From a virus (lineage: Duplodnaviria; Caudoviricetes), in IMG/VR virus record IMGVR_UViG_3300036860_000231, positions 1 to 50,870 of that record: DNA of 50,870 bases; one strand, written 5' to 3'. Shown piece after piece: positions 3,629 through 43,939 of this stretch (position 1 is its first letter; the number at the start of each line of letters is the position of its first letter). A program made the position numbers and the translations under genes. The notes beneath the pieces were generated by a model. That model ran no database searches. It worked only from the letters and a program-made list of their open reading frames with translations, and was not told where the DNA came from.

Positions 3629-4623
3629 GTATCGCCCTACCTACAGCAACGACCGCACCGATATCCGCTGTTTGCGACTTGGAGCGGTCTGTCCCCTTGG
3701 GCCAGGATGCGACGCCCGGCGCCCTGGCACCAGCCGGTCAGTTTCGCACCAAGGGGGGACCTTTGCCATCCACCGCCGCATGGGAACGGTATGTGCTGCT
3801 GCTACGACGCCGTCGCCGCAGCCAGGAAACCATCGACCTGTACCGGGTCGTCCTCAGAGAACTGTGGGCGTTCCTGGCCGACCAGCACCATGACTGGCGG
3901 CAGGTGACCCCGGAACTGGTGGACGCCTGGCTGGACAGCCAAGTCCGGGCGGCGTGGACCCGCAACACCTACGGCCGCGTCGTCCGCCGCTTCTACGCCT
4001 GCGCCGTCAGTCGCGGCTGGCTGGACGGTCCCAACCCACTCGAGGACTGGACCCCACCCCCAGCGCCCCCACCGCGGCCCCGCGCGCTACCGCTGGACGC
4101 CATCGGCGAACTGCTGGCGGTCGTGGACCCGAGGATCCGCATGATGGTCCTCCTGGGCTACTTCCAGGCGCTGCGGGTCGGGGAGATCGTGCGCCTGTCC
4201 GTCGAGGACCTCGCGCTTGGCGCGGACCCGCCGATGATCCGGATCGACGGCAAGGGCGGCAAACAGGTGTGGATGCCGCTGTCCCCGGCGCTGGTCGGCC
4301 CGCTGCGAACCTTCCTGCTGCTCCGCCCGGCACGGGGCCCGCTCATCCCCAACCACCGCGACCCCGACCGGCACCTGCATCCCAAGTATGCGGCCCATCT
4401 GCTGGCCAGCGTGATGCGGCCCGTGGTCGGCGACAGTGGGCATGCGTTGCGGCACACCGCCGCCCGGCAGCTCCGCCGTCAGACCCACGACCCGTTCCTG
4501 GTCCGCGACGCGCTCCGCCATGCGGGCCTGGGATCGTTGGAGTTCTACACGCAGGACCCGGAGACGCTGGCGGCCGCGCTCGGCCTGCTCCCCGACCCGC
4601 TGGGCGACGGTGCCAGCCGGTGA
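3625..4623 (+). CDS. int: Tyrosine recombinase/integrase (XerC/D-like); start may be TTG 3763
   Basis: Catalytic R (LRVGE), K (GKGGK), HxxR (HALRH), H (LRH), Y (EFYT); SAM-like N-terminal domain. Confidence 0.93.
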   Translation: MSIALPTATTAPISAVCDLERSVPLGQDATPGALAPAGQFRTKGGPLPSTAAWERYVLLLRRRRRSQETIDLYRVVLRELWAFLADQHHDWRQVTPELVDAWLDSQVRAAWTRNTYGRVVRRFYACAVSRGWLDGPNPLEDWTPPPAPPPRPRALPLDAIGELLAVVDPRIRMMVLLGYFQALRVGEIVRLSVEDLALGADPPMIRIDGKGGKQVWMPLSPALVGPLRTFLLLRPARGPLIPNHRDPDRHLHPKYAAHLLASVMRPVVGDSGHALRHTAARQLRRQTHDPFLVRDALRHAGLGSLEFYTQDPETLAAALGLLPDPLGDGASR

Positions 4624-11282: not shown

Positions 11283-13643
11283 TTAAGCCGGCTCGTAAAG
11301 AAAGCCGCATCTTTGCCCAGTAGAAGCGGCGGCGGTCGAAAGCAAACCGATGGTCCATCCGATGCCCAAGTAGCTGGTCGCTGAGGCGGTGTAGGTCTTA
11401 CTTCCATATACCCCGGCGGCATGCGTAGCGCCGTCGTCGGTGACCACGCCGGCGACCCGGCCATCGGCGGTGCCGGTGGGGAACGCCACGGCCCGCTGTG
11501 CCTCCCCGCCCGGCAGCGTCCACGAACTCGTGAGCCCGCCCGGGTTGTCGCGGGTGAACGCGGCGGAGATGACAAGGTCGGCGGCGCCGGTGGTGGTCGC
11601 GTTCGGAGTGACAACCGTGGCCGAATCAGCGTTCTTGGTGGATGACTGGTCGATATCCACCAGGGCGAGCTGGTCGGTGCCGGAGTAGGCGACCAGCTGG
11701 ATCGACCCGTGCGCGTTCACGGGGGTGCTATCAGTTGCACTCACCACCGTGTTCAATGCAATGGTGCTGCCGGAGTCGCCGGCGGCGGCAGTCTTGCGGT
11801 ACAGGCGGCTCACCAACTCCCCAGCGCCGGCGGCGAGCAGCCTTGAGTCGACCGCGGTCCACCCGGTCGGGGCGGTCAGGACCGCGCTGGTGCCGGAAGG
11901 GCCCATCCACGTGTCGGTGGCCAGGCCCATGTCATCCAGGTACAGGTCGTAGGTTTGCGCGACCGAGCTGGCCAGCCCGAAGTTGTAGGACACCCCAGCG
12001 GCGGCCATCGTGAACGCAGTCGAATCAACCGGCCCCTCGTCAACGGTCGTCTCGGCCGCCCCGCCCGCGTTGGTGTTCTCGAAGATCTTGACCGTGACCG
12101 TGGTCGTCGACCCGTTCCAGACCGCCTTCCATTCGATCCGATTCCACACGTTGGCGGCCGGGGTGATCGTGGAGGTGTAGCGGGTCGCGCCGGCGGTCAG
12201 GTCACGGACGATCACCTTCCCGGCGGTATCCAATCCGATGCCCCAGTTACTGCCGGTGGTGGGGTTCTGCTGCATCAGCCGGGTGATCTGGGGTGGCAGC
12301 GCGGTCCGGTAGTAATACAGCCGGCCGTAGTAGGTGCTCGGCGAGCCGAATGCAGTACTCCAGGTTGTGCGTGAGGTGGACTGCGCTGTGAGGGTGTAGT
12401 GGATCGACGTGGTCCCCGAGTGAGCCTGCGTGCTCGAGTACACCGGATTGGGGGTCGTGCTCAGCGAATCCCACGGGTTCGATCCCGCCGAGTTCGAATT
12501 GCCGGTGGTCACATTGGCGAGGTTGGTGCCCTCCCCGGCGTTCTTCAAACCGACGCGAGTGCACGTGTGGAACAGCAGCATCCCGTCGCCGGCCTGCACC
12601 GTGGCCGGGATCACCAGCGTCTGGCTGGCCGAATTGCTGTACGCCTTGGTTGCGTCATCCCGGAAGGAGCCCTGGTTGACCGGCGGCGGGTTCAAGCTCA
12701 TATCCGGGTTGAAGAACGAGTCGCCCGCCAGCGCCTTGTACCCGTCCAGGGTGGTGGTGGAGCTGTTGAGGCACTCGCTGGCGTTGGCCGACCCATTGAA
12801 GTACACGGCCGCCTTGATGATGTCGTAGGGGGGGCTTTTCAGCAGCGCCCGCATATCCGCGAAGAACTGCGCCTTCGCGTTCGGCTGCCCGCTGACCTCC
12901 CGCTTGCCCCATTCGGCCATCATCATCGGCTTGGTGTGACTGCCGCTCTTGGTGACCGTCGCCCAGTTCACCATCGGATATTTGGTGCTAAGGACGTACT
13001 CGGCGGTGTCACTGGCCGAGGTGTTGCCGTAGGGGTCGAACCCGATCCAATCCACATACGCGTCGCCCGGATACAGCGCGTTCATCCGGGTTGGGAACTG
13101 GGTCTGGTATCCGGATGGCTTGAACACCCAGATGACGTTGGTGGCGCCCTGGGCCACAAAGACGTTGTGGATGTGCTGCGCCGCGCTCGCGTATTCCGCG
13201 TCGGTGCCGTAGGTGCCGCCACCCTCAGTCGAGCTGGCGTTCATCTCGTTGTGGAACGCCAGGAAGAACTTGGACCCGAAGTCCCGCATCGCCTGCGCGG
13301 TCGGGATCACATAGGACGCGTCGTAGACGCCGGCGGCGATGTCGGGCCAGCGGAACTGCGTCGTCGTCCCGAAGATCCGGGGAGTCCAGTGGATCAGCAG
13401 CAGCCGACCCTCCGCCGCCATCGTCGCCTCACCACCACTGGCCGCGAACGAGGTGGTGAAGTCGTTCCAGTCATGGTAGGCGCTGGCCACGTTGAGGATG
13501 CCGTTCGTGGCGGCGGTCCGGTCGATCAGAGTCTCGTGGTTGCGGAGCCGGGTGAGATCCGAGGTGGCGGCGTCGCAGGAGCTGGACGGGTAGCCACCGA
13601 ATAGGCAGCCGCTACTCGGAACCAAGATGCTGGACAGGCTCAC
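11283..13643 (-). CDS. Tail-associated GH26 glycoside hydrolase with beta-sandwich domains
   Basis: FHNEMN (acid/base), YPGDAYVDWIGFDPY, KPMMMAEWG (nucleophile). Confidence 0.8.
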   Translation of the reverse strand: MSLSSILVPSSGCLFGGYPSSSCDAATSDLTRLRNHETLIDRTAATNGILNVASAYHDWNDFTTSFAASGGEATMAAEGRLLLIHWTPRIFGTTTQFRWPDIAAGVYDASYVIPTAQAMRDFGSKFFLAFHNEMNASSTEGGGTYGTDAEYASAAQHIHNVFVAQGATNVIWVFKPSGYQTQFPTRMNALYPGDAYVDWIGFDPYGNTSASDTAEYVLSTKYPMVNWATVTKSGSHTKPMMMAEWGKREVSGQPNAKAQFFADMRALLKSPPYDIIKAAVYFNGSANASECLNSSTTTLDGYKALAGDSFFNPDMSLNPPPVNQGSFRDDATKAYSNSASQTLVIPATVQAGDGMLLFHTCTRVGLKNAGEGTNLANVTTGNSNSAGSNPWDSLSTTPNPVYSSTQAHSGTTSIHYTLTAQSTSRTTWSTAFGSPSTYYGRLYYYRTALPPQITRLMQQNPTTGSNWGIGLDTAGKVIVRDLTAGATRYTSTITPAANVWNRIEWKAVWNGSTTTVTVKIFENTNAGGAAETTVDEGPVDSTAFTMAAAGVSYNFGLASSVAQTYDLYLDDMGLATDTWMGPSGTSAVLTAPTGWTAVDSRLLAAGAGELVSRLYRKTAAAGDSGSTIALNTVVSATDSTPVNAHGSIQLVAYSGTDQLALVDIDQSSTKNADSATVVTPNATTTGAADLVISAAFTRDNPGGLTSSWTLPGGEAQRAVAFPTGTADGRVAGVVTDDGATHAAGVYGSKTYTASATSYLGIGWTIGLLSTAAASTGQRCGFLYEPA

Positions 13644-13664
13644 AGTCGCACTCCTCTATGATGG

Positions 13665-13728
13665 GGCGCGACACGGCGTGGCAAGGCTAGGCCGGGCGAG
13701 GCAAGGCTGGGCATGGCAGGCATGGCCT
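13665..13728 (+). repeat. GGC-NN pentamer tract; candidate gapped-code guide RNA
   Basis: GGCGC GACAC GGCGT GGCAA GGCTA GGCCG GGCGA GGCAA GGCTG GGCAT GGCA GGCAT GGCCT; TATGAT -10 box at 13657-13662. Confidence 0.8.
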
Positions 13729-14300
13729 TAATTGTCCCTATATTTCAGAACAACCAGTAATCCCGCACCGTCCGACCCTTGCGTGATCTGCGGCTTCAGG
13801 ATGTCGTCGGCGACCAGCCCGGTCGAGGTGAACACTGGCGCATTGGTGTTGATCGCCTGCCCAACCGTGATGCTCGGTTTGGTCGATAGCACCGACACGC
13901 CGTTCTTTAATAGATCCACCACACACGCCAGGCCGGTGGCGGCGACGGTGCCGAGCACCAGCCGGATCGACAGGAGCGTGCCGGCCTGCTCGACCCGCCA
14001 CGGTGTCCCATGGGTCGTTGGAGAGGTGACGGTGGCGAACTGCCACGGCACGTCATGCTGCTGGGGGAACAGCGAAACCGCCTGCCACTCCGCCGTCCCC
14101 GCGCCGGTCCCCGCTAGGTACTGGCTCGCCGCCGGCGCCAACGACGAGCCGGTCCCCAGCATCGTCTCAATGACCCGGATCGCCTGCCCGACGTTCTTCC
14201 CGAACGTGAGCAGCCCGCTGGAGCCGCCGGTGATCGGGTCGTTGGCGATCGTCGAATCGTCGTCCAGAGCGACCCGATTGATGTACTTGGAGTCAGCCAT
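13728..14300 (-). CDS. Minor tail protein
   Basis: VDLLKNGVSVLSTKPSI...DDIL small beta domain; in tail module. Confidence 0.75.
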   Translation of the reverse strand: MADSKYINRVALDDDSTIANDPITGGSSGLLTFGKNVGQAIRVIETMLGTGSSLAPAASQYLAGTGAGTAEWQAVSLFPQQHDVPWQFATVTSPTTHGTPWRVEQAGTLLSIRLVLGTVAATGLACVVDLLKNGVSVLSTKPSITVGQAINTNAPVFTSTGLVADDILKPQITQGSDGAGLLVVLKYRDN

Positions 14301-14309
14301 GCGCCATCC

Positions 14310-16289
14310 CTACGACCATGTGTCACTCCAGATGTCGGTCCAGGTTCCCTCGGTATTGGCGATCGCGCCGGCTTGGGCGAGCCGTGTCGTCACCCCAAGC
14401 TCGCTGCGACCGGTCACCCCCAGCTGCCACACGTCATAGATGTCCCCGGGGGAGGCGTTGAACGCGATCAGCCACCGCCCGAGACTGGCAGTCTCGGTGT
14501 ACCCCTCGACCATCAGGTCGAGCGTGCTGGCGGGCGCCTGGGCTGGCAGATTGGACAGGCGGAACTTGGTTGACAGGTCCGCGGCCAGTATCGACAGGGC
14601 CAGCGACGGGTTGAGCTGGTCGAGGCTGAGTATGTCGACAACCACCTGGGGGGTCCTGGTCCGGGGCGTTCCGTAGGTGTTGACCCGCCAGGACGCGGCG
14701 CTGGACAGCTCGTCGGCGGAGCTTGCGGGGATCTCAGCCGAGTCCCGGTAGAGCCCGTACTCGTCCCTCGAGGCCTCATCGACGAACCGCGCGGAGGCGC
14801 CGTCAGGGCGGGAAATGGTCAGGTCATTGACCATCCCGAAGTCATCGCCGGGGAACTGGAGTTCGTCGGCGAGGTGGCCGGCGGCCACATCCAGGGTGAA
14901 CGCAGGGGCCTGGTTGTAGCGCCGCGACCGGTTGTGGAAGGTCAGCAGCCCCGACCGGCCGAAGAATAGGATGCCTGATTCGGCGGCGGCGGCCTGGCGT
15001 GCCACCTCGACGGGCTGCTGCCCGTTGGTCGCCTGCGCCCCGACCCGCCCGTTGCCGGCATCCAGCGCGCGGTCGGCGGTGGGGAGGCCGACCCAGTCGG
15101 CGATCCGACCGATCCGCTGGTCGGTCCGCTCCCCCGCAAGCCCCGTCAGGCCAGCCTGCGCATGGGCGGCGACCCTAGCAGCAGTGAGCGCGGCAGAGTG
15201 GGCGGCCACATGCGACAGGGTGCCATTGAATAGCCGGCCGGCCTTCGGATCCCCACCGATCGACAGACGAGAGTAGGTGCTGAGCGCGGTCGTGGTGAAC
15301 GTGGTCGAGTCGGCCTGCGCGCCGTCCAGGTACAGCAGAGCAGTCACCGTCGACCCGGAGATCGACATCGTCAACGCGCCATGATGCGTGTGGCCGTCAT
15401 CGACCCGGCTCGAGGACTCGAGGTTGAAGTAGTAGCCCCCGTCCACCGCGGTCCACGCGGCCGCCGACAGCTTCCCCCCCGCGGAGATGCGGAGCTCCGC
15501 GGTCGCGCCGGCGGGGGCAGTCAGCATCCCCACGATCGCGATCGTGCTGACAGTGCCCTCGGCGCGGAAGAACCCCTCCAGCGTGACCCCGGCGGAGCCG
15601 ACCCCGGTCCGCAGGGTCGCATCCAGCAGCTTCCCCGCAGTCGACGAGACGGGGGTGAACAGCGGCGCCGACAGCTGGTCGGCGCCCGGGCCGGTGCCCT
15701 GCGCGAACTCGACCGTTCCCCCCGAACCGACCTGCCGGATGGTGGCGGGGTCCTGCGGCTGCGCGGTCACGTTGCCCGCCGAGGTGGATTCGGCCGGCTC
15801 CGACAGCGGATAGTACGCGGATCCGTGGGTCGAGTCCGGGGCGACCGCATCACGGAGGACCTCCTCCTCCACCATCGAGCGGAGCTCCCCCGGCCGGCCC
15901 AGCCGTTTCATCCGGTCCGTCGCGGTGATCGTCGCCGGCGCGAACTGGCCCTGCGGTGCCTCCCAGGTGGTCGGGAACTCGTTGATGTGCCCGTCGAAGC
16001 GGATGTAGGGGGTGGCGCCCCAGGTGCGGGTCCACCGGACCCGCCGGCCGTTGCGGACGTTGGGGTAGTACGGCGACGCGGCCCGGAAGCGGGTGAACCG
16101 TCCGTCGGTGTTGTCGAGCGTGAAGGTCATCACGGTCGGGGAGGTGTCGGAGAACTCGTCGGGGCGGCCATAGTTGGACACGGTGATCTCGGGTGGCAGC
16201 AGCCAGGCGCTCACGTCGGTCCAGGTCGGCGATGCGGCCATCGGCTGCGACACGAACGCGATTTCGAGCTTGTCCGTGACGGCGGTCAC
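14310..16289 (-). CDS. Minor tail protein (distal tail/hub with LamG domain)
   Basis: WTDVSAW, TLDNTDGRF, YYPLSE, DDGHTHH, FNGTLSHVA; follows tape measure. Confidence 0.85.
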   Translation of the reverse strand: MTAVTDKLEIAFVSQPMAASPTWTDVSAWLLPPEITVSNYGRPDEFSDTSPTVMTFTLDNTDGRFTRFRAASPYYPNVRNGRRVRWTRTWGATPYIRFDGHINEFPTTWEAPQGQFAPATITATDRMKRLGRPGELRSMVEEEVLRDAVAPDSTHGSAYYPLSEPAESTSAGNVTAQPQDPATIRQVGSGGTVEFAQGTGPGADQLSAPLFTPVSSTAGKLLDATLRTGVGSAGVTLEGFFRAEGTVSTIAIVGMLTAPAGATAELRISAGGKLSAAAWTAVDGGYYFNLESSSRVDDGHTHHGALTMSISGSTVTALLYLDGAQADSTTFTTTALSTYSRLSIGGDPKAGRLFNGTLSHVAAHSAALTAARVAAHAQAGLTGLAGERTDQRIGRIADWVGLPTADRALDAGNGRVGAQATNGQQPVEVARQAAAAESGILFFGRSGLLTFHNRSRRYNQAPAFTLDVAAGHLADELQFPGDDFGMVNDLTISRPDGASARFVDEASRDEYGLYRDSAEIPASSADELSSAASWRVNTYGTPRTRTPQVVVDILSLDQLNPSLALSILAADLSTKFRLSNLPAQAPASTLDLMVEGYTETASLGRWLIAFNASPGDIYDVWQLGVTGRSELGVTTRLAQAGAIANTEGTWTDIWSDTWS

Positions 16290-18865
16290 CGGGTGACCCC
16301 ACCGAGTCGTCGGCTGAGCGCGGCCTGGCCGGCGAGGATGTCATCAACCGCGACCCGCGGAGGCTCCTCACGGAGCGCCTTGGCGACGGCCTTGCCGAGC
16401 TTGTCGTAGTCGAAGCCGAGCGCCTCCGGCCGGCCGGTGGTGTTGAGCGCCAGCCGACCCGGGGGAAGGAAGCCACCACGGTCGTAGCCAATCGGGCGGC
16501 GTAGCGGATCGACGGCCGCCAGCGACCCGTAGCGGCCGATGGCGTAATGCCCGCCGGCATAGGAGTTGGCATATGGGTTGATGCTGACGCCGTAGAGAAA
16601 CGGGCCGACGTTGCGGAACCTGCCGGCGTTGGCTGCGAACGTCCCCCGGATGACCTGCGCGCCACCAACACTGGGGTGGCCGGCGGCCCAGTTCGAGTCC
16701 CACTTGTTGACGATCGACCAGTTCCCGCCCGACTCGAACATGATCCGCCGCGCCCACGCGGCCCACTCTGCAGCGCGACCGAGGACTGCTGCGGTCCACC
16801 GCGCGACCCGATCCACGCTGGCCGTGCCGCCAGGCACCCCGAACGCCTTCAACATCTTGGTCAGCCCACGGTCCATGCGGATGCCGGTCCCGCGAGCTTG
16901 GAGCCTGTTGACTCCGCGTGCTTCCGCGTCGATGGTGCCGACCACCCCACCGCCGGCGAACCGCATGGCGTTCAGCCGCTTCATGTTCGCCACGCCGATC
17001 TGGCGGACCGCAGCGGCGTTGACGACGAACTCGCCGGCCGACAGTAGCGCCGGCACCCGGTCGGCGGTCGGACCGCCCGGCCCGATCACCAGCCCGCCGC
17101 TGGCGCCGCGGGTGGCGACCTTCACCTGCGCCCAATCCGCCTGGGTGAACGAGGGGGAGAAGTTCAACTTCAGCGACGCGGTGACGGGGATGTCCTTGCC
17201 GGTGAGCCGGTTGACCCGCGCCTGGATCTTGCCGAGCTGGTCGTCGACGGTCCGTTTCGCGCCCTTGACTGCTTCCTCGGCCTTGCGGAACGGCGCGCCC
17301 ATCGGGCCGGGCAATTTGCCCATCACGTGGAGGATCCCAGCGACAACCGCGAACTGGACGTCCAGCCAGCCACGGATCGCCTTGATGATGAACGTGATGA
17401 CGTTGCCGACCACCGTCTTGATGCTATTGAAGACGGTAACGGCGAACTGGCCGAGCTTGCGGAGCGCCGCGCCCGTGTTGTTGGTCCCCGTGATCCATTG
17501 CAACAGTGACGCGCCGATCCGAGCGAGCCAGCGGACCGCAGTGGTGATCCAGCCGATCACCTTGGCGATGGTGCCGATGAGGAACCCGAGCACCGGGCCG
17601 GCGAGCCGCAGGATGAACGGTAAGACCTTGGCCAGCGCGACGTAGAGAACCACACCGATGACGATCCCCAACGCCTTGAGGATCGGCCACAGTTGCGTGG
17701 CGATCATGTGCCAGAGTGTCTTCAGCCCCGGCAGCAGTCCCTGCACGAACGCGGCGATGGCGGGACCGAGCGCGCGGGCGATCCCGGCGATGGCGGGGCC
17801 AAGGATGCCGGCGGCGATGCGGGCGGTCCGCATGAACCAGTCGACCACCGCGCGGGCCACCACGCCGATCCGTTCCATGATCCCGACGAACCCGGTGGAG
17901 GTGACCCCCTCGCCGCTGAATGCCGCGCCGAGCGCCCGCACGCCGACCGCGCCGGCATGCAACCAGCGGCCAACCGTCGCCAGCGCCCCAGGCAGCTTGT
18001 CGACCAGAAATCCCAGGAACCGGTTCATGATCGGCAGGAGGACCGTTCCGACCTGTTCTTTCAGGTTGCCGACGAATACGCCGAACCGCTGGCCCTGATC
18101 GGCCGCCGCGGCGGCGGCCCCGCCGAATTCGGACCGGAGCTCGGCCAGGAGGATCTTCTGCGCGCCGGCGGTGTTGCCGGCCTTCACCATCGCGGCGATC
18201 TGGTCCTTCTGCTGCTGTGTGAAGGTAACCCCCACGCGGGTCAGCGCCGTGATCCCCTTGATCGGGTCATTCAGGGCCTTGCCAACCTGAATCGTCGAGG
18301 CTTTCATGCCCTCCGCGGTGACCTTGCCGTTGTTCATCGCGGCGGTCATGTCGACGATTGCGCCGGACGCCTGGTTGAAGATGTCGTTGCCCTTGCCGGC
18401 CTCGTTGCGTACACCTTTGAAGGTCAGCAAGAGGTTCTCGGCCGATTGGATCGCCTCATCGTCGACGCCGACCTTGTTTGATAATGCGGTGGCAAGGTCG
18501 CCGATCTGCTTGGCAGACACGTGAGCGACCCCGCCGGTCGCCTTGAGGACCGCCTGGGTCTGCTTGCCGACTACCGCAGCCTCGCGGGCCTCGTCAGTGA
18601 CGCTCTTGATCCCAGCGACAATCGCGGCACCGCCAAACGCGGCGGCCAGACCCGGCCCGAATCCGCGGAGAATCCCACGGACCGGGCCAATGCCTGCGCG
18701 CAGGCCGCCGGAGAAGTGCCGGCCGAACCGGGTGCCCGAGTCCCTGCCGCCCCGCTCGGCCGTGGCCGCCATTGGCTTGAGCATCTGGCTGGTGAGCTGC
18801 CTGGAGAAGTCCCGCGAGATCCGCGGGACTACATCTAGATAGGCAGTACCAGCTGAGACGGCCAA
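16286..18865 (-). CDS. Tape measure protein with C-terminal lytic transglycosylase-like domain
   Basis: GTAYLDVVP start, QVGKALNDPIKGITALTRVGV, FESGGNWSIVNKWDSN. Confidence 0.9.
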   Translation of the reverse strand: MAVSAGTAYLDVVPRISRDFSRQLTSQMLKPMAATAERGGRDSGTRFGRHFSGGLRAGIGPVRGILRGFGPGLAAAFGGAAIVAGIKSVTDEAREAAVVGKQTQAVLKATGGVAHVSAKQIGDLATALSNKVGVDDEAIQSAENLLLTFKGVRNEAGKGNDIFNQASGAIVDMTAAMNNGKVTAEGMKASTIQVGKALNDPIKGITALTRVGVTFTQQQKDQIAAMVKAGNTAGAQKILLAELRSEFGGAAAAAADQGQRFGVFVGNLKEQVGTVLLPIMNRFLGFLVDKLPGALATVGRWLHAGAVGVRALGAAFSGEGVTSTGFVGIMERIGVVARAVVDWFMRTARIAAGILGPAIAGIARALGPAIAAFVQGLLPGLKTLWHMIATQLWPILKALGIVIGVVLYVALAKVLPFILRLAGPVLGFLIGTIAKVIGWITTAVRWLARIGASLLQWITGTNNTGAALRKLGQFAVTVFNSIKTVVGNVITFIIKAIRGWLDVQFAVVAGILHVMGKLPGPMGAPFRKAEEAVKGAKRTVDDQLGKIQARVNRLTGKDIPVTASLKLNFSPSFTQADWAQVKVATRGASGGLVIGPGGPTADRVPALLSAGEFVVNAAAVRQIGVANMKRLNAMRFAGGGVVGTIDAEARGVNRLQARGTGIRMDRGLTKMLKAFGVPGGTASVDRVARWTAAVLGRAAEWAAWARRIMFESGGNWSIVNKWDSNWAAGHPSVGGAQVIRGTFAANAGRFRNVGPFLYGVSINPYANSYAGGHYAIGRYGSLAAVDPLRRPIGYDRGGFLPPGRLALNTTGRPEALGFDYDKLGKAVAKALREEPPRVAVDDILAGQAALSRRLGGVTR

Positions 18866-18918
18866 TTGGTTCTCCAGTCGTGACCCGCCCGACCTATCGC
18901 CAGATTCGGCGTGGGGCA

Positions 18919-19000
18919 TATGCTCTGTGACATGAGAAGGCCCGGCGCGAGAAGCGCTCGCCCGGGCCCGGCCGAATCCCTAGTGGAAGGGACCGACATG
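18919..19000 (+). promoter_or_regulatory. -10 box (TATGCT) and two-hairpin RBS-sequestering leader
   Basis: GGCCCGG-C-GCGAG...CTCGC-CCGGGCC then TCCCT...AGGGA-CCGAC-ATG; same architecture as 29915-29997. Confidence 0.6.
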
Positions 19001-24088: not shown

Positions 24089-24559
24089 TCAGTTGGTGAC
24101 CGCGCAGGTCAGCCACCCTGTTGGCTCATAGTTCTGATTGGTCGTGTAGGCATAGCCGTTTGGTGCCTGACCAAGCGGAACCGGCTGATCATCCAAGTAC
24201 GGTCTCCAGTTGACCGCTATTGGGCCAGCCCCCGGGAACGTGAACGCAAGCGATAGGGCGGTCTCGCCCGCTGGGCAATGGATCTGGCCGGTGTAGTTCC
24301 CGTAAGGAACCTCAACAACGTGAACGCCCGCAAGCCCGGGCTCTCCCTGCGGGCCAGTCTGGTTCCAGTTCAGCGCCGTGTAACCGCTCGGGCATGACGC
24401 TGCGGAGTCGATGGCGATCAGGGCGCCCTGCGCAGGGTTCGAGGTTTTGTAACAGGCATGGATCATACCATCCGGGCCGGGGATCGTCGCGTAGGCGATG
24501 CCGGCGCCGATGCCGAGAATGAGCAAAGCCGCGACGATCGGTGCGATTCGCTTCCTCAA
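24089..24559 (-). CDS. Secreted protein with short collagen motif (moron)
   Basis: Signal peptide AGIAYA, IHACYK, WNQTGPQGEPG; lower GC3. Confidence 0.7.
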   Translation of the reverse strand: MRKRIAPIVAALLILGIGAGIAYATIPGPDGMIHACYKTSNPAQGALIAIDSAASCPSGYTALNWNQTGPQGEPGLAGVHVVEVPYGNYTGQIHCPAGETALSLAFTFPGAGPIAVNWRPYLDDQPVPLGQAPNGYAYTTNQNYEPTGWLTCAVTN

Positions 24560-24563
24560 GGGC

Positions 24564-25040
24564 TCACTCCTCGAATTCGATGAACAGTTCGAACACGTGG
24601 TTGGCGGCAAGCAGGCCGCTGCGGTTCACGAACGCGAATCCGTCAGTGGCCAGCTTGCTGATCTCGAATTCCTCTAGGAACTCTGCGGGGATGTCCACGC
24701 CGCTTTTGGCGTTGAACGGGATCGTGAAGATGTCGGTGGCTTCGGCACCCTGGGTCGGCACGCCAGTGAATGCCGTGTCGAATGCCATGCGGGCGGTGCC
24801 GTGCCGGGCGAGGTTGGCGTTGATTGTGCCAGCGACCGGGGTGGTGCCAGCGCTGGTGACGCGGTTGATGCCGACCTTGCACTGGAAGTCGTTGACTGCG
24901 GTGTTCGCGGTGGTGTTGCGGCAGCCGAGGATGACGCGCCGCAGCAGCCCGCCGCCGTTGGCGGTGCCCATCAGCCACGCGAACGCGGTGTCGTCGGCGA
25001 GCGCCGCCACGCTGGTGACCTGCGCTGTGTACCTTGCCAT
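24564..25040 (-). CDS. Virion beta protein
   Basis: RBS AAAGGA; ends IEFEE; structural operon. Confidence 0.75.
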   Translation of the reverse strand: MARYTAQVTSVAALADDTAFAWLMGTANGGGLLRRVILGCRNTTANTAVNDFQCKVGINRVTSAGTTPVAGTINANLARHGTARMAFDTAFTGVPTQGAEATDIFTIPFNAKSGVDIPAEFLEEFEISKLATDGFAFVNRSGLLAANHVFELFIEFEE

Positions 25041-25052
25041 GTAGGTTCCTTT

Positions 25053-25244
25053 CTACCAGCGTCCGCTGTACTGGCTGACGATCGGTGGTGGCGTCTGCCC
25101 GGCGCGGCGCCACAGCAGCAGGGTGAGCAGGTCGGCGAGGTCGCCGAGCCGCAGCCACGCCACGGCCGCCACAACGACAAGACCCTCGAGCAGCGTGGCG
25201 GCGAGCAGAATCATCCACATGGCTACCACGACGGGTCCTTTCAC
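25053..25244 (-). CDS. Small membrane protein ending in duplicated PP(I/F)VSQYSGRW
   Basis: Hydrophobic; 25055-25088 repeats 25243-25276 (32/34). Confidence 0.5.
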   Translation of the reverse strand: MKGPVVVAMWMILLAATLLEGLVVVAAVAWLRLGDLADLLTLLLWRRAGQTPPPIVSQYSGRW

Positions 25245-26056
25245 CAGCGGCCGCTGTACTGGCTGACGAACGGTGGGATCACCCCGGCCGCTGGGGCGGC
25301 CCCGGACGGGTTGAGCGCAAGGATCGTGCCCTGCCCGACCGCCGAGTCGGTGATCGTCACCACTTCGGAGGCCGCCGCAGCGGTGCCCTGCGGCAGGTAC
25401 TGAATGTCACCCCAGACGTTGGTGACCGCCGCGATCGAACACTGGTTGATCGCGCCAGTGTCGGTCCACCCGGACGCGACGCTGATCGTCTGGGTGACGC
25501 CGACGCCGACCTTCCCACCCCAGACCAGCACGAGCATCGCGAGGTTCTCGTCGGGGGTGAGCGTCCCCGACGTGTACGTCCCGGAAGATGCTTGGGCGGT
25601 CTGCTGGAAATCGTTGTCATTCGGGCCGAGCGGATGGGTGGTGTCGACCCCACGGAACGCGGCCGCATGGGTCGACCAGGACCGGGCGGTCGACAGGGTG
25701 AACCCTGGTGCGGTGTCCCCCGAGACGAAGAATCGGGTATAGGTCGCGGTCCGGATCGACGTGTCGCTCAGGTCCGAGATGAGCGTCATCGTCGCGCCGC
25801 TGGTCTGGCTGATCGTGGTCGGGGTGCCACCCGACCCGTAGGTCACCTCGAGGACGATCAGGTCCCCGTCGGTGAAGTCGCCGGTGGGCCATGCGGTCGT
25901 GACGGCGGTACCTTGTGCGGCCGCGGCGGTGGTCCCGTCGGTGCCGACCTTGGTGATCGGGGAGACCGCCCCGGCGGCAGACGCAGGCTTGATAATGCGG
26001 GTGCCGAGCCGCGCCCGGGGCAGCCTTGGTCGGCGGATCGGCCGGAGGACCGGCAT
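25241..26056 (-). CDS. Virion fibre/decoration-like protein
   Basis: Ser/Thr/Gly-rich beta domain (GDLIVL, AAAFRGVD). Confidence 0.7.
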   Translation of the reverse strand: MPVLRPIRRPRLPRARLGTRIIKPASAAGAVSPITKVGTDGTTAAAAQGTAVTTAWPTGDFTDGDLIVLEVTYGSGGTPTTISQTSGATMTLISDLSDTSIRTATYTRFFVSGDTAPGFTLSTARSWSTHAAAFRGVDTTHPLGPNDNDFQQTAQASSGTYTSGTLTPDENLAMLVLVWGGKVGVGVTQTISVASGWTDTGAINQCSIAAVTNVWGDIQYLPQGTAAAASEVVTITDSAVGQGTILALNPSGAAPAAGVIPPFVSQYSGRW

Positions 26057-26076
26057 CGCTCACCCCCGGCAGGCTG

Positions 26077-26520
26077 TCACTGGTCGACGCTCCAGTACAC
26101 GTCGGAGGCTTGGAAGGTCCCGTTGATGCTGATCAACCCGAGTCCGTTCGCCGTGCCGGACGGGACCAGCAGGCCACGGCCACCGAACGTCCAGATGATC
26201 CCCGACCCGATCGACGCGCCAATACTCACGCGGCGCACCTCGGCACCCAGCGGTGTACCCGCCGAGTGCGCTTGCACCGAAGCCCACTTGGCGGTCAGGT
26301 TCGTCGCGCCTTCCTCGTAGGTGATGGTGCCCGCCGCCGCGCCCTGGGTGCCGGCCGCGGTCAGCCGCGCGAGCGTCAACTCGAACGCGGTGGTCGTGGT
26401 GCTGGTGAGACCGACCTCGACAAGCCATATGTCGCCGGTGCCAAGCGAGTAGATCGATGTCGCGGGCAGCGTCGCCGACCCGGCGCCGGTGGTGCGGTAG
26501 GCCACTGCCGTACGCGCCAT
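26077..26520 (-). CDS. Virion beta protein
   Basis: Structural operon; GSGIIWTF motif. Confidence 0.7.
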   Translation of the reverse strand: MARTAVAYRTTGAGSATLPATSIYSLGTGDIWLVEVGLTSTTTTAFELTLARLTAAGTQGAAAGTITYEEGATNLTAKWASVQAHSAGTPLGAEVRRVSIGASIGSGIIWTFGGRGLLVPSGTANGLGLISINGTFQASDVYWSVDQ

Positions 26521-26523
26521 TGT

Positions 26524-27285
26524 CTAGCCTCCGATGATCGTGGACGGGCTGGGTGGTGGCGCGGCCGGGCCGACCCACTGGGGTCGCTCGGATGGACGTG
26601 GGGAACGCATCAGGATCTGCGGTGCTCCGGCGGTGGCGAGCTTGAACGCCACCGTCATCAGCGCCTTACTCGACGCGTTGGTGAGCGTCGCGGTCGACTG
26701 GCCGGTCGCGCCGGCGGTCGCCTTCGTCGCCGACACCAGGCCAATCCCGCCACCGTTCCCGGTGAGGATCCAGTTGTCCATCTGCTCGACAATGGACATG
26801 TAGGTGACGTTGGTGAGCGCGCTAAGGTTGGCGGTCGAGGCCACATCCGTGCCGGTGGAGATGATCTCCAGGATCAGCGTGTCGTCCACGGTGGTGGTGA
26901 CACCCGGCCAGGTCGCCGAGGTGTCGCTGGTTGCTTCGACCGCTGAGGCGGCGATATCCCACGGGTTGCCGGTGGTGGGGCAGCCGCGGATGGCGATCAT
27001 CCGGCCGACATTGTGATCCCCGGAGTCCCCGAGGCTGGGGGCGGTGAACACGCCGTCGTAGCGGCGCCAGATCACCCACAGGCGCGTGTTGGTGCCCTCC
27101 TGCACCGGACTGCCGGTGATGTGCGCCCACCCGGACGGGAGGGTGTACGCGCCGGGGGCGGTGACTCCTTCGCATTCGGCGATGATGACCAGGATGTCGT
27201 CGGCGACGATCGAGGCGGGGAACGCCGGGGTGATCGCCGAGGCGCTGGAGGCGACCGCGCCGACCGCAACAACGGTGGGAGGCAT
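26524..27285 (-). CDS. Virion fibre/decoration-like protein
   Basis: DDILVIIAE, PSGWAHI, AIRGC; TGATG coupling. Confidence 0.7.
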   Translation of the reverse strand: MPPTVVAVGAVASSASAITPAFPASIVADDILVIIAECEGVTAPGAYTLPSGWAHITGSPVQEGTNTRLWVIWRRYDGVFTAPSLGDSGDHNVGRMIAIRGCPTTGNPWDIAASAVEATSDTSATWPGVTTTVDDTLILEIISTGTDVASTANLSALTNVTYMSIVEQMDNWILTGNGGGIGLVSATKATAGATGQSTATLTNASSKALMTVAFKLATAGAPQILMRSPRPSERPQWVGPAAPPPSPSTIIGG

Positions 27286-29381
27286 CAGGTGGGCAAGACT
27301 GGTTCGGGGTCGGGGTACAAGGCCACGTACCCGGTGGTCGGCGCGTCGGGGGCGTCCACGATCACGATCTGCGTGGCGCCAGCGGCGACACCTGTGTCGG
27401 TCACGCTCGGGTATTCGGTGTGCAGCATCGAAGCCGCGTCGGGCGAGTTGGTGACCGTCACCGAGCGGGTCCCCAGCGTGTTGGGATTGGTCGCCACCGA
27501 TGCGAGGGCCCCGAACAGGGGTTGGGTGACGGCCTTGCGGACCGCGTATTCCAGGTACACCGCGTGGACACCCATGTCGGGGGCCGCGTCGGTGGAGAAC
27601 CCGACCCTGATCGTGGCGGCGTCCAGCTTGGCGACCGTCCACCCGTTGGTGGATGGCCAGGTCCCGCACTGCCAGCGCGGCTCGGTGGAGGACACCGCGG
27701 TTGGGCTGGCCGCATCGTAGGAGACGCCGGTGTCGACCAGGACCTGCTCGGTGGTCCCGTCAAAGCCGCGGATCCCCAGCGTGCCGGTACCCGCCCCGGT
27801 GCCACCCCAGGCGGGCGCCAACATCCGCACTCCGGTCACCACCTCGCCGGCGGCCACCGTCGGGGCGGCCATGGGGAACTCCATGTAGTCGCTTGCGGCG
27901 GTGGCGGTCTGGACCACCCCATCGGCGCTGGCGGAGATGGTCGGGGGGACCTCATCCAACGCGTTGCGCGCGTTGGTCGCATTCCATGCGGCCAGGGTGC
28001 CGTTGGCGGTGAACACGCTGAAGTTGGTGCTCGTGCCGGACACGGTGGGGGTGCCGGCGGGGTCGACGGTGAGCAGCCGGATCTCATGCGGGCCGAGCGG
28101 GTAGGCGGAGTAGTTTTGGGACAGGACCACGTCGTCATAATCGGCCGTCATCGTCTGCGACCCCGAGGCGCCAAGCTCCAGCATGACCATGGACGTCGCG
28201 GACTGCCCGCCAAGCTCCGCGGCGGTCTGATCGGTGTAGATGTCCGTGCCGGTTTCCAGCCGCCAGTCGGCATGCCACGTCGAGGTTGTCGTCTTGGCGC
28301 GCAGGTCAACCCACACCCACGTATTCGTGGCGGTGGTGCCCGACTGCCAGGAGACGGTGCCGGCGGTGCCGCAGCGGACCCCAAATTTGGCATTGGTCGC
28401 GTCATAGAGCAGCTCGGCGAGATGGGTGCCGGTGTTGGCGGTCAACGATGCGACCACGACCGTGCCGGTGGCGGAGACAACCCGGACGTTGAACCCGGCC
28501 GCTGCGGCCTTGGTGTTCATGTTCCCCGCCCGAACATACCCGGCGGCGGCGGACTGCACCACCCGCAGCCCATAGCCGGAAGTACGGGCAGAGCCAGCCT
28601 GGATGAGATAGCTGGTCCCCCAGGTGCCGCCAGTGGTGGCAAACGACGCGCCCAAAAGGCATGTGGAGCCGGTGTGCGAGTTGATACCGCCGTGGGTGCC
28701 CCACTCGAACCCGGCCAGCACGTGTAGCGGCGCGACAATGGCAGAGTCGGCAGCAGCGTAGGCGATCGTGATCGCATCAACGCTGGCCGGGCTACCAGAG
28801 GTGGTGAATACCGCCGTGGTGTTGAACTGGCCGGTCTGACCGGTGACGAACCGTCTGGCCACCGCGAGCGTCCTCGCCGTGTTCGGGTCGCTTATGTCGG
28901 CGACCTCGGCGAAGTTATCGGTCCAGTTGCTCCACGACTGCACATCGCCAGCTGTGACCGTCGCGCTGACCACGCCAAACACGACCGTATCCAGCGCAGC
29001 GGTCAGCGGGGTTGTCGGCAAGGTGGCCGTATTGCCGTTGGAGACCAAACCAGTGGAACCGGCCGAGGCGTCCACGGCGACGGCCGGTTCAATATTGGTC
29101 ATCTCGCAGGCATACCAGGAGAACAGCGTGCCGGTCGCAGTCGTGAACGTCCAAGACGACTCGCCGGCAGTGACCTCGGACTTGTGCGAGGCGATCACCG
29201 TGCCAACGGCGCGGTCGGTGACGAACCCGGCCGGGCCGACGGCCTCAAGCCCACCAGTGATGATGACCACCACGGTATTGCCGGCGGTCGTCCCTAACGG
29301 CAGGGTCACGTTGACGCTGGTGCTAGTCGTGGTCGTGAACCCGGTGTTCTCCTGGATCACGTTCGCGTCGCTCAGCGGCAT
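27285..29381 (-). CDS. Large virion fibre-like protein with LamG-like domain
   Basis: Thr/Gly-rich, GFEWG...NTWVWVD...YDDVVL. Confidence 0.7.
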   Translation of the reverse strand: MPLSDANVIQENTGFTTTTSTSVNVTLPLGTTAGNTVVVIITGGLEAVGPAGFVTDRAVGTVIASHKSEVTAGESSWTFTTATGTLFSWYACEMTNIEPAVAVDASAGSTGLVSNGNTATLPTTPLTAALDTVVFGVVSATVTAGDVQSWSNWTDNFAEVADISDPNTARTLAVARRFVTGQTGQFNTTAVFTTSGSPASVDAITIAYAAADSAIVAPLHVLAGFEWGTHGGINSHTGSTCLLGASFATTGGTWGTSYLIQAGSARTSGYGLRVVQSAAAGYVRAGNMNTKAAAAGFNVRVVSATGTVVVASLTANTGTHLAELLYDATNAKFGVRCGTAGTVSWQSGTTATNTWVWVDLRAKTTTSTWHADWRLETGTDIYTDQTAAELGGQSATSMVMLELGASGSQTMTADYDDVVLSQNYSAYPLGPHEIRLLTVDPAGTPTVSGTSTNFSVFTANGTLAAWNATNARNALDEVPPTISASADGVVQTATAASDYMEFPMAAPTVAAGEVVTGVRMLAPAWGGTGAGTGTLGIRGFDGTTEQVLVDTGVSYDAASPTAVSSTEPRWQCGTWPSTNGWTVAKLDAATIRVGFSTDAAPDMGVHAVYLEYAVRKAVTQPLFGALASVATNPNTLGTRSVTVTNSPDAASMLHTEYPSVTDTGVAAGATQIVIVDAPDAPTTGYVALYPDPEPVLPT

Positions 29382-29428: not shown

Positions 29429-29917
29429 CTAGTCGGCGATCCCGTTGGTGGCAGCGAATTCTCCCCATGCTGCCACGGCGGCAACGTCATAGGCGCGGGC
29501 GGCCTCGTCCTCAGCCAAGAAGTTGCCTAGGTGGCGCATGCGGCCATCAATGGAGATCTGCGCCTTCCACCTCTGGTTGGCGCGGTCCCAGTAGACGCCC
29601 TTGTAAGAGGAAGTTCCGCCTCTCCTCCGCTGGTTGGCGTTGTTCTGGGACTGCGTTGCAGGCCGCAGGTTGGCGCGCCGGTTATCCAGTCCGTCCCCAT
29701 TCTGGTGGTCGATGCTCAGGGTGCCCATGATGAGGTTGTGCATCCTGGTCGTGGTCCGGCACCCGTCAGGCCGCGTGATGGTGGCAGCGACGTACGGGCC
29801 GTGGCGTCCCTGTTCCCAGACATGCCAGCGATGCTGCATCACGAGGTCGTAGTCCTCATCATCGACGAGGGCGAAGCGGCCAGCGGCCTTCTTGCCGTTT
29901 AGCGGTACGGTCTTCAC
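29429..29917 (-). CDS. HNH-AP2 homing endonuclease
   Basis: ALVDDEDY, DHQNGDGLDNRRANLR, SSYKGVYW...HLGNF..EDEAARAYD. Confidence 0.92.
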   Translation of the reverse strand: MKTVPLNGKKAAGRFALVDDEDYDLVMQHRWHVWEQGRHGPYVAATITRPDGCRTTTRMHNLIMGTLSIDHQNGDGLDNRRANLRPATQSQNNANQRRRGGTSSYKGVYWDRANQRWKAQISIDGRMRHLGNFLAEDEAARAYDVAAVAAWGEFAATNGIAD

Positions 29918-29997
29918 GTCTGGTCCTCTCGTCAGGATCAGGCCACGGCCCAGGGTGTTGACGCACCGCTGGGCCACTCTTGTCAGGAGCTATTTTA
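29915..29997 (-). promoter_or_regulatory. -10 box (TAAAAT) and two-hairpin leader of the HNH-AP2 gene
   Basis: GGCCCAG-C-GGTG...CACC-CTGGGCC then TCCT...AGGA-CCAGAC-GTG. Confidence 0.6.
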
Positions 29998-32616: not shown

Positions 32617-32955
32617 TTAGTCTTCCGTTGCTGCGTCGAGCCGTTCCTGGAGCTGCGCCTTGGTGCCGTAGGTCGGTAGGCCCTGGGCTTCCGCCTGGGC
32701 GCGCAGATCCGCCAGGGTCGGCTCCGGCGGCTCCGGCAGTGCTGGCGGCTTCTCCTCTTCGAGGATGACTCCGCCACCGCCGGCGCAGTGTGCTCGGTAC
32801 CAGTCCACCGCCGCCTGATCACCGTCGTCGACCTCGACGACCTCATCGGCAGCCCAGGACTGGTAGCCGCTCGGGGTGTAACCCGAGTTCGGCCCGACCA
32901 GTTGCACTCGCATCGGTTGGGCTCCTGTCAGAGGAGGTACCAGTTGCACTCGCAT
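32617..32955 (-). CDS. SAP/HeH-domain protein downstream of capsid (second start at 32913)
   Basis: TLADLRAQAEAQGLPTYGTKAQLQERL. Confidence 0.8.
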   Translation of the reverse strand: MRVQLVPPLTGAQPMRVQLVGPNSGYTPSGYQSWAADEVVEVDDGDQAAVDWYRAHCAGGGGVILEEEKPPALPEPPEPTLADLRAQAEAQGLPTYGTKAQLQERLDAATED

Positions 32956-32982
32956 CGGTTGGGCTCCTGTCAGAGGAGGTAC
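32899..32982. repeat. Exact 42-bp tandem duplication of capsid stop + RBS + start
   Basis: 32899-32940 = 32941-32982. Confidence 0.95.
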
Positions 32983-43224: not shown

Positions 43225-43939
43225 GGTGCCGCTTGCCGCGTCCTGAACGTCGGGTGGGTCGAGCTGCCTGGCCGGGAGCTGCCTGCTGCGCGGTTGCTGC
43301 GGCGGCGCTCACCGGTGGCGCGTCAGACCCTGACGCCTCGGTGGGGGCGGTGCCGAAGAGGTCGGCAAGTCGTTGCCGTTCGGCTTGGCGGTCAGCGATG
43401 GTTTTGGCGGTCAGATCGGCCTTGAGGGTGGCGAGGGTGGCGGCCGCGTCCGGCGGGACACCGTTGCCACTTGCCGAGCGGCTGCCGAGCGCGTCAGCGC
43501 TCGGCTCGGCAGCCGCGGTCGATGCGCCAGCGGTTTTGATTCGATCTTCTTCAGGTCTTATTCCACCTATAGACGGACCCGCAGATCGAGTCGCTACGGG
43601 ACCCTGGATCGAGTCGCTACGGTCCGCAGATCGAGTCGCTACGGAGTCATCCACCGACTGTAGTGACTCGATAAGCGAGCCGCTACAGATGCGGTAGGTG
43701 GTCGCCTTCCGGCCGGACCCGTTCACCACGATCTCGATCTCGCCGGTCGCCAACAGTTCCCTGAGGGCGAGATGCACGGTTGAGCTGGACACGTTCGCCT
43801 CGAGTGCGAGCGTCCGACGTGACGCGTAGCTGTCGCCGGTCTTGTAGTCGGCATGGGATGCGAGGGCGATCAGGACGAGCCGAACGGCACCACTGGTGTG
43901 GCTTCGTTTCATGACGTCACGGATGGCGTCGAGGCTCAC
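43178..43939 (-). CDS. Replication initiator with winged HTH (lambda O-like)
   Basis: RLVLIALASHAD...SYASRRTLA..ANVSSSTV..ALREL; internal iterons. Confidence 0.8.
   Translation of the reverse strand: MSLDAIRDVMKRSHTSGAVRLVLIALASHADYKTGDSYASRRTLALEANVSSSTVHLALRELLATGEIEIVVNGSGRKATTYRICSGSLIESLQSVDDSVATRSADRSDSIQGPVATRSAGPSIGGIRPEEDRIKTAGASTAAAEPSADALGSRSASGNGVPPDAAATLATLKADLTAKTIADRQAERQRLADLFGTAPTEASGSDAPPVSAAAATAQQAAPGQAARPTRRSGRGKRHRGREPPTTRPRSPRP
43584..43688. repeat. Iterons / probable origin: GATCGAGTCGCTACGG x3 plus an inverted pair
   Basis: Copies at 43584, 43607, 43629 (23/22-bp period); degenerate inverted copies 43658-43672 and 43674-43688. Confidence 0.8.

Follow-up and report, generated by a model that had tools for sequence, protein, structure and literature searches.

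VIPR, first described in 2026, is guided by vrRNAs made of 9-16 YNNGG (GGY/NN) repeats, and in the preprint text that describes them these guides recognise double-stranded DNA with one skipped base per unit, usually at the wobble position, natural targets being called at an 80% match of the NN bases and no self targets appearing at that level (bioRxiv 10.64898/2026.04.26.720920). The same text covers several array architectures, among them, in the legend to its fig. S18, staggered arrays with vrRNAs overlapping by 1 nucleotide (nt), and a structural preprint presents one Vipr protomer per repeat, with the skipped base flipped into a pocket (bioRxiv 10.64898/2026.04.26.720927). According to the text of an October 2026 preprint, solo vrRNAs without vipr occur on satellites and on 346 vipr-less enterobacterial phages, act via another element's Vipr, match their own genome less well than those of rivals, function in trans in E. 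coli (its section 7), and on F5 satellites neutralise phage VIPR by redirecting Vipr (bioRxiv 10.64898/2026.10.15.759431). Here we describe a tract of GGC-NN pentamers inside the tail operon of a viral genome, IMG/VR record IMGVR_UViG_3300036860_000231 (Caudoviricetes; estimated 95% complete), the whole 50,870 bases of which were analysed and are called the window below. On balance the tract is probably a solo vrRNA of a block-punctuated ('staggered') kind found in actinophages, aimed at the tract-less allele of sibling phages and working in trans today.

Like the solo vrRNAs of F5 satellites and of VIPR-null SUSP1-family phages, as the preprint text presents them, the tract is a GGYNN array without vipr or vap, is predicted to depend on a foreign Vipr, and has a self-match below its match to rivals. 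Those solo vrRNAs belong to Enterobacteriaceae, carry a SUSP1-type 40-nt pseudoknot tail, sit on phages at a deleted vipr-vap1 site, and are, in the same text, aimed at REP elements, vipr genes, other vrRNAs and satellites, whereas the tract lies antisense inside the tail operon of a soil siphovirus of actinobacterial type, is punctuated by GGCA, has no recognisable tail, and would target the sibling allele of the very gene that it abuts. With the type II VIPR of SUSP1, whose vipr we located at KT454805 28474-29061 (its 195-aa product is PDB entry 36pp, 'SUSP1 Vipr protein', with homologues that include Gordonia, Rhodococcus and Streptomyces proteins), the tract has in common a GGY/NN guide, a one-base skip, a coding target, a skip on the wobble base and the lack of any self target at 80% or above; the SUSP1 vrRNAs differ in having GGT units and a conserved pseudoknot tail and in flanking vipr-vap1. 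The reading rules themselves, GGY/NN units with every third base skipped, had been put forward in an earlier note on this DNA, and they are real by the preprint text (bioRxiv 10.64898/2026.04.26.720920).

The tract occupies an 84-nt gap (13644-13727) between the stop codon of a gene for a 190-aa tail-fibre-like protein (13728-14300, minus strand) and the GTG start of a gene for a 786-aa tail protein (11283-13643, minus strand). On the plus strand, ten 5-nt units form a guide block at 13665-13714 (GGCGC GACAC GGCGT GGCAA GGCTA GGCCG GGCGA GGCAA GGCTG GGCAT), and their NN series, GC AC GT AA TA CG GA AA TG AT, is the one that the earlier note had read there. A 4-nt GGCA (13715-13718) then shifts the register by one base and is followed by GGCAT GGCC (13719-13727), the start of a second block truncated after 9 nt. 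All ten units are in register, with a single GAC among them, and nine perfect GGYNN units stand in a row (13675-13719), while elsewhere in the window no run on the plus or minus strand exceeds 4; runs were called from at least 4 units upward, 9-16 being typical. Just upstream of the block, the -10-like hexamer TATGAT (13657-13662, plus strand; TANNNT) is a possible start signal for a plus-strand RNA; the hexamer had been put forward as a -10 box and is indeed present, but a consensus scan gave it no acceptable -35 partner. The remaining part of the insert (13644-13656) serves the minus strand, where a Shine-Dalgarno motif GAGGAG (13651-13656) with its spacer precedes the 786-aa gene; a 20-mer from this region occurs once in the window. 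Tract-less relatives have no such gap, the stop and start of the two genes overlapping or abutting.

Could the tract be a GGC-rich pentamer microsatellite, or an unstructured spacer of the late mRNA, whose likeness to a gene end is coincidental? Tandem Repeats Finder reports periods of 5, 10, 15 and 20 at the tract, and the plus-strand RNA is less structured than its shuffles (z=+1.79), both of which would suit such an origin; the longest GGYNN runs in 200 first-order Markov simulations, however, comprised 3 to 6 units, short of the nine perfect ones observed. Two further candidates were rejected. The 20-nt period does not mark a duplication, as sibling alleles show instead that four units were lost in the related contig L002, and readthrough of the minus-strand stop across the tract is contradicted by the same 20-nt deletion, which would shift the frame.

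The closest architectural parallels stand beside vipr genes in isolated actinophages. Matches to the tract were found by blastn in 32 Mycobacterium and 5 Gordonia phage records, and those in Mycobacterium phages Quico and Donkeykong and Gordonia phages UmaThurman and ODay are arrays that adjoin a Vipr homologue (profile E 1e-12 to 7e-17). These four arrays are built of blocks of about 10-14 all-GGC or GGY units with a 4-nt GGCA between them; the last unit is often GGCAT, GAC units occur, 5/17 blocks are exactly 50 nt long, and 7/17 end in GGCAT or GACAT. The tract has the form of one such block, 50 nt with GGCAT as its last unit, then GGCA, then 9 nt of another, and its opening GGCGC GACAC resembles the GGCGC GACAG that starts one Quico block. 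Because the same GGCA separates blocks in these vipr-linked arrays (L144, L145, L146, L147), the 'irregular' 4-nt unit reads as a hallmark and not as a defect, and this shared idiosyncrasy is a further argument against a microsatellite. The difference is one of extent and company: the four phages have 4-8 blocks beside Vipr and on its strand, the window one block and a stub with no Vipr. The punctuation is shared with these arrays; a VIPR-positive partner in its own host or community was not found. Across 110 Vipr loci that we fetched, 173 runs of at least 6 units were found in 71 loci, all on the vipr strand, and the last unit was GGCAA, GGCAG or GGCAT in 97/173 of these authentic runs as against 21% of internal units; such a conserved array-end GGCAT explains why the terminal AT unit of the tract never matches its targets.

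Vipr genes do occur in actinophages, with 3 Gordonia and 3 Mycobacterium records among the 130 phage records with a match, and lone arrays are found there too. Mycobacterium phage Wanda (L148, NC_022067, ~24.7-24.9 kb) has a single GGYNN array with a hairpin tail, antisense in a 222-nt gap between the tape-measure and a minor tail gene, with no Vipr within 2.5 kb of it, and at the corresponding tape-measure/minor tail gene site an IMG/VR contig (L091; 109,086 bases) carries an entire vipr locus with arrays, again antisense. By eye, Wanda's solo guide shows no visible match to the end of its own neighbouring gene. Some 25 phage records of ~110 kb gave similar tract matches at ~24-26 kb. The GGCA-punctuated array of ODay (L147, MW534375, 10343-11180) comes after gp19, a homologue of Vipr (profile E 1.9e-16), and this VIPR locus, accompanied by helix-turn-helix genes, forms an insertion that separates the tail assembly chaperones from the tape-measure gene. 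Coding sequences annotated as hypothetical proteins, Trine gp40 (L143), Donkeykong gp48 (L144) and UmaThurman gp40 (L145), overlap GGYNN arrays and are probably not proteins.

What sets the tract apart from these arrays is the sequence that it spells. Matches were scored as NN bases agreeing in codon phase on the gene strand at the orthologous junction, over an eight-unit (/16) or the ten-unit (/20) series. The carrier's own gene end, CTG AAA TAT AGG GAC AAT TAA, agrees at 11/14 positions over the units GT to TG, exactly as the earlier note had counted, and scores 11/16 on eight units and 12/20 on ten, yet this self match is weak when taken alone: 4.8% of 5000 unit-order permutations do as well within ~140 nt (P=0.048), and 12/20 is attained at 30 sites in the window and exceeded at seven. 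No site in the window reaches 80%, the best standing at 14/20 (15/22).

Comparison of five relatives of the 190-aa gene with readable junctions gave a different picture for the tract-less alleles, which match better than the carrier's (14-15/16 versus 11/16). In the closest relative, L138 (190-aa protein 93% identical), the gene ends ..GTG ATC CTC AAG TAC CGG GAC AAC TGA with the next start 1 nt away and scores 14/16 and 15/20; in L003 (80% identical) it ends ..GTG ACC CTG AAG TAC CGG GAC AAC TGA, overlaps the next ATG, and scores 15/16 and 16/20; in L022 (67% identical) the end is ..ATC CTC AAC TAC CGG GAC AAC TGA (14/16, 15/20). A contig of soil run X2, ending ..ACC GTC CAG TAC CGG GAC AAC TGA, reaches 17/20 on ten units, and its peptide ending, VTVQYRDN, is that of the family proteins P0131 and P0137. 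L003 and X2 thus exceed or equal 80% with the skip on the wobble base, as a natural target should. The earlier proposal that the guide addresses a relative's gene end with a CGN arginine, a TGA stop and a threonine is borne out by CGG and TGA in all four tract-less alleles and by ACC in L003 and X2. The fifth relative, L002 (88% identical), retains the tract minus four units and has the window's gene end, from which its scores of 11/16 and 12/20 were inferred, the latter also being listed directly at its junction.

Near the junction none of 5000 permuted guides reaches the sibling scores, and none of 470 eight-unit decoy guides taken from real arrays exceeds 13/16 at the sibling junctions. Locus-wide, the 16/20 of L003 was reached by none of 200 shuffled guides and none of 200 Markov surrogates, while 15/20 was reached for L138 in 5/200 shuffles and 2/200 surrogates and for L022 in 4/200 and 1/200. 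An exact 15-base pattern of the guide occurs in 15 stretches in all of IMG/VR, one being the L003 junction; the other 14 were judged chance matches, lying in low-GC contigs (0.29-0.57) with an amino-acid pattern dictated by the search pattern, and the sole one inspected, in L009, is antisense inside a tape-measure-like open reading frame (ORF). Apart from the marginal self match, these figures leave little room for coincidence, and the microsatellite or spacer explanation is close to refuted.

The carrier's copy of the target is recoded, as the earlier note had supposed. Both carriers end the gene GGA TTA CTG GTT GTT CTG AAA TAT AGG GAC AAT TAA, unlike L138, L003 and L022, so that an AT-rich patch covers the last 11 codons and the stop (13728-13763, minus strand), with the footprint of the eight-unit core at 13728-13751; the 36 nt of the patch correspond roughly in length to the ten-unit footprint. 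The GC content of the last 30 nt, 10/30, is the lowest among 63 predicted gene ends (next lowest 13), which makes the gene end as conspicuous as had been claimed, although the background is ~67% GC and not the ~70% first given. AGG accounts for 4.3% of arginine codons in the window, TAA is the stop of 9/63 genes, and GGA, TTA, GTT (twice), AAA, TAT and AAT each make up 1-22% of their synonymous family. Relative to L138, 12/36 nt differ in the gene end versus 28/174 further upstream (Fisher P=0.033), and changes from GC to AT make up 10/12 of the differences in the gene end versus 10/28 upstream (Fisher P=0.014). For the final five codons and the stop, we can discern just two synonymous changes that would alter a first or second codon base, CGG->AGG and TGA->TAA; the carrier has the two of them, and each lowers the match. 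The altered wobble bases have two candidate readings, namely that skipped bases matter in this array type, or that the patch doubles as the 3' part of the guide RNA.

In the family of the 190-aa protein, for which 24 homologues were found, residues -8, -7 and -6 from the C-terminus vary (I/V/T, L/V/A, K/N/Q), the rest of the C-terminus being conserved, and these are the codons under the guide units AC, GT and AA; this could be escape variation.

As to an effector, the SUSP1 Vipr, a 20-sequence Vipr profile and the Donkeykong Vipr found no match in the window or in the contigs of L002, L003, L004 and L022, the best of 604 six-frame window fragments scoring E=2.1, whereas the same profile finds actinophage Viprs at E 1e-12 to 7e-17; very distant Vipr types could escape it. 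No RAMP was recognised among the window's unannotated proteins by Pfam or PHROGs, and by eye these are Thr/Ala/Gly-rich and structural-looking, only the 190-aa protein having been folded. That neighbour, of the same size as Vipr, was rejected as a RAMP, its model showing a predicted N-terminal helix and a jelly-roll beta sandwich (predicted local distance difference test score 74) with a tail-fibre structure as its best PDB match (9rkv, Agrobacterium phage 7-7-1 tail fibres, E 9e-5). There is no nuclease at the locus, and the contigs of L003, L004 and L022 contain no other GGYNN tract of at least 5 units. A solo vrRNA is a vrRNA in a genome that lacks vipr and vap, and with no Vipr detected in a 95%-complete record the tract would be one, barring a highly diverged type of Vipr among the genes that have no annotation; the earlier description of an orphan, trans-acting or remnant guide without effector agrees with this.

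In the mechanism that we propose, a plus-strand guide RNA, antisense to the tail operon, would be transcribed from the tract, and its NN bases would pair with the first and second bases of the last eight codons, TGA included, of a tract-less sibling's tail-fibre-like gene. The guide would be loaded onto a Vipr from another element in the cell, either a VIPR-positive prophage or a co-infecting phage, and on the sibling's late operon it would block transcription just upstream of the GH26 tail protein and lysis genes, to the benefit of the carrier. The 786-aa gene is the first one downstream of the target site in the late operon, with small genes and then lysis genes behind it. The carrier itself would be spared because its own gene end is synonymously rewritten (CGG->AGG, TGA->TAA and rare A/T-ending codons).

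A phage without a Vipr of its own might gain differently, by a guide that mainly soaks up or redirects a resident element's Vipr, with the silencing of siblings as a secondary effect, as the preprint text reports for satellite solo vrRNAs that neutralise phage VIPR (10.64898/2026.10.15.759431). We think this very unlikely to be the main role: the guide is not aimed at a multicopy decoy but at one specific sibling site, through a pattern rare enough to occur in 15 IMG/VR stretches, and among 123 sampled VIPR guides none is aimed at this phage family beyond chance-level scores.

Several observations weigh against an active guide directed at siblings. Besides the absence of Vipr matches in the window, the consensus scan found neither a promoter pair nor a terminator at the tract; there is no structured 3' tail, and no similarity to 173 sampled vrRNA tails beyond the repeat. 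In IMG/VR the 3' flank of the tract occurs elsewhere only in the L002 contig. The known carriers number two, identical save for the 20-nt deletion, and conservation of GGY against variation of NN is unmeasurable between them. The 80% criterion is reached by only two of the four sibling alleles, L138 and L022 falling below it, and the published rule gives no reason to expect wobble changes such as those in the recoded patch. Real but unrelated guides also score 0.85-0.875 at one place or another in these loci, so that a score counts only together with its position; the weight of the match rests on position, codon phase and recurrence across alleles, not on the score alone. Finally, the tract decays: four units (GA AA TG AT; 13695-13714, plus strand, 20 letters absent at 13695) are missing in L002 and in one soil contig of run X4, and a contig of run X3 carries a version 9 letters shorter.

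Several of these points would also fit a fossil, that is, a dead remnant of a VIPR locus or array at this junction, neither transcribed nor loaded, whose match and recoding were left by a past conflict. No vipr, no consensus promoter and no recognisable tail accompany the tract, its deletion variants recur in the L002, X4 and X3 contigs, the second block breaks off after 9 nt, and the comparison of Wanda with L091 shows that loss of vipr can leave a lone vrRNA between tail genes. Yet the genome, 95% complete, keeps a full ten-unit block with intact punctuation, the patch of rare codons has retained sharp limits close to those of the guide footprint, and solo vrRNAs act in trans in E. coli according to the preprint text (10.64898/2026.10.15.759431). 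We hold a fossil to be possible but doubtful, and a solo vrRNA at work against siblings to be the likelier identity.

Soil-metagenome contigs, all from DNA runs, hold the full tract, the 20-nt deletion (X4), the version 9 letters shorter (X3) and tract-less alleles. In contigs of runs X1 and X4 the tract (at 13675 and at 13689-13707) continues into additional GGYNN units that differ in NN and include GGT, and that are partly readable; perhaps these are longer arrays from a VIPR-positive element that shares units with the window's guide. No second occurrence of the guide core, spelled in GGY units, was found in IMG/VR, an Rfam search of the locus returned nothing relevant, and megablast of 13000-14600 against the phage collection gave zero matches. 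Between ~14000 and a point below 12400, tract included, the sequences of the window and L002 agree at 97-100%, the 786-aa protein being 97% identical in L002; upstream and in the background they diverge. Such a shared block could reflect ordinary mosaicism and recombination or the spread of a cassette. It is the one observation that bears on the RNA-guided homing suggested in the earlier note, and since recombination accounts for it equally, that suggestion is not supported.

Homing endonuclease genes and other site-specific selfish insertions sit at or next to the site that they recognise in empty alleles, and in the carrier that site is altered. The tract has the same site-adjacent placement and the same altered copy of its own, but differs in that no nuclease or effector is encoded and no transfer event is shown. 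In a bolder reading, the cassette would be an RNA-guided, drive-like selfish allele: a Vipr supplied in trans, perhaps with a nuclease accessory, would disable or cut cassette-less genomes in co-infection, and recombination would copy the cassette with its recoded flank. Such a history would account for the position of the guide beside its own target, for the ribosome-binding site carried by the insert, and for the nearly identical block common to the window and L002; even so, we rate it as unlikely. In a variant that is bolder yet, the guide might have been written in place from the adjacent DNA. In a more distant relative, L004, an extra ORF of ~60 aa is inserted at the same gene junction (4382-4562), which suggests that this tail-gene junction is an insertion hot spot.

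Most of the window's genes lie on the minus strand and encode terminase, portal, protease, capsid, a tail module and endolysin, and there is a tyrosine integrase; because structural, tail and endolysin genes occur together with this integrase, the phage is taken to be a temperate siphovirus. Its host is probably actinobacterial, judging solely by the terminase, which shares 33% identity with terminases from Arthrobacter, Mycobacterium and Gordonia phages; a genome-contig search found no relatives of the 190-aa protein that would name a host. Upstream of the 190-aa gene in the operon lie a gene for a 659-aa protein with a lectin-like domain (14310-16289, minus strand) and the tape measure gene (16286-18919, minus strand); the 786-aa protein downstream has a GH26 glycosyl-hydrolase domain (PF02156, E 2.6e-7). 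Elsewhere on the minus strand, 24089-29381 encodes Thr/Ala/Gly-rich proteins of 156, 158, 271, 147, 253 and 698 aa with no Pfam or PHROG match, and the neighbouring ORFs 25053-25244 and 25241-26056 both end in SQYSGRW. An HNH and AP2-domain protein with the usual build of a free-standing homing endonuclease is encoded inside the structural region (29429-29977, minus strand). Two copies of a perfect 42-nt direct repeat lie upstream of the capsid gene (32897-32982), and a 22-nt repeat is present in 3.2 copies with 78% matches at 43573-43645.

Overall, the earlier interpretation of the tract is largely borne out, and its interest lies in where such a guide is found and what it is aimed at. By the preprint texts, solo vrRNAs have been described only from enterobacterial phages and satellites (the supplements may list actinophage cases), and the present locus extends solo guides to soil phages of actinobacterial type, while vrRNA arrays in already sequenced actinophages stand annotated as hypothetical proteins. 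Its logic is also sharper than any reported so far, since, on this reading, the guide is directed at its own insertion point as that site stands, still empty, in the closest competitors. The locus raises three questions: do phages that lack vipr recruit a resident Vipr, does recognition by arrays of this type depend on the skipped bases, and do guides travel together with their insertion site? If the guide was written in place, it would offer a glimpse of how VIPR guides are made.

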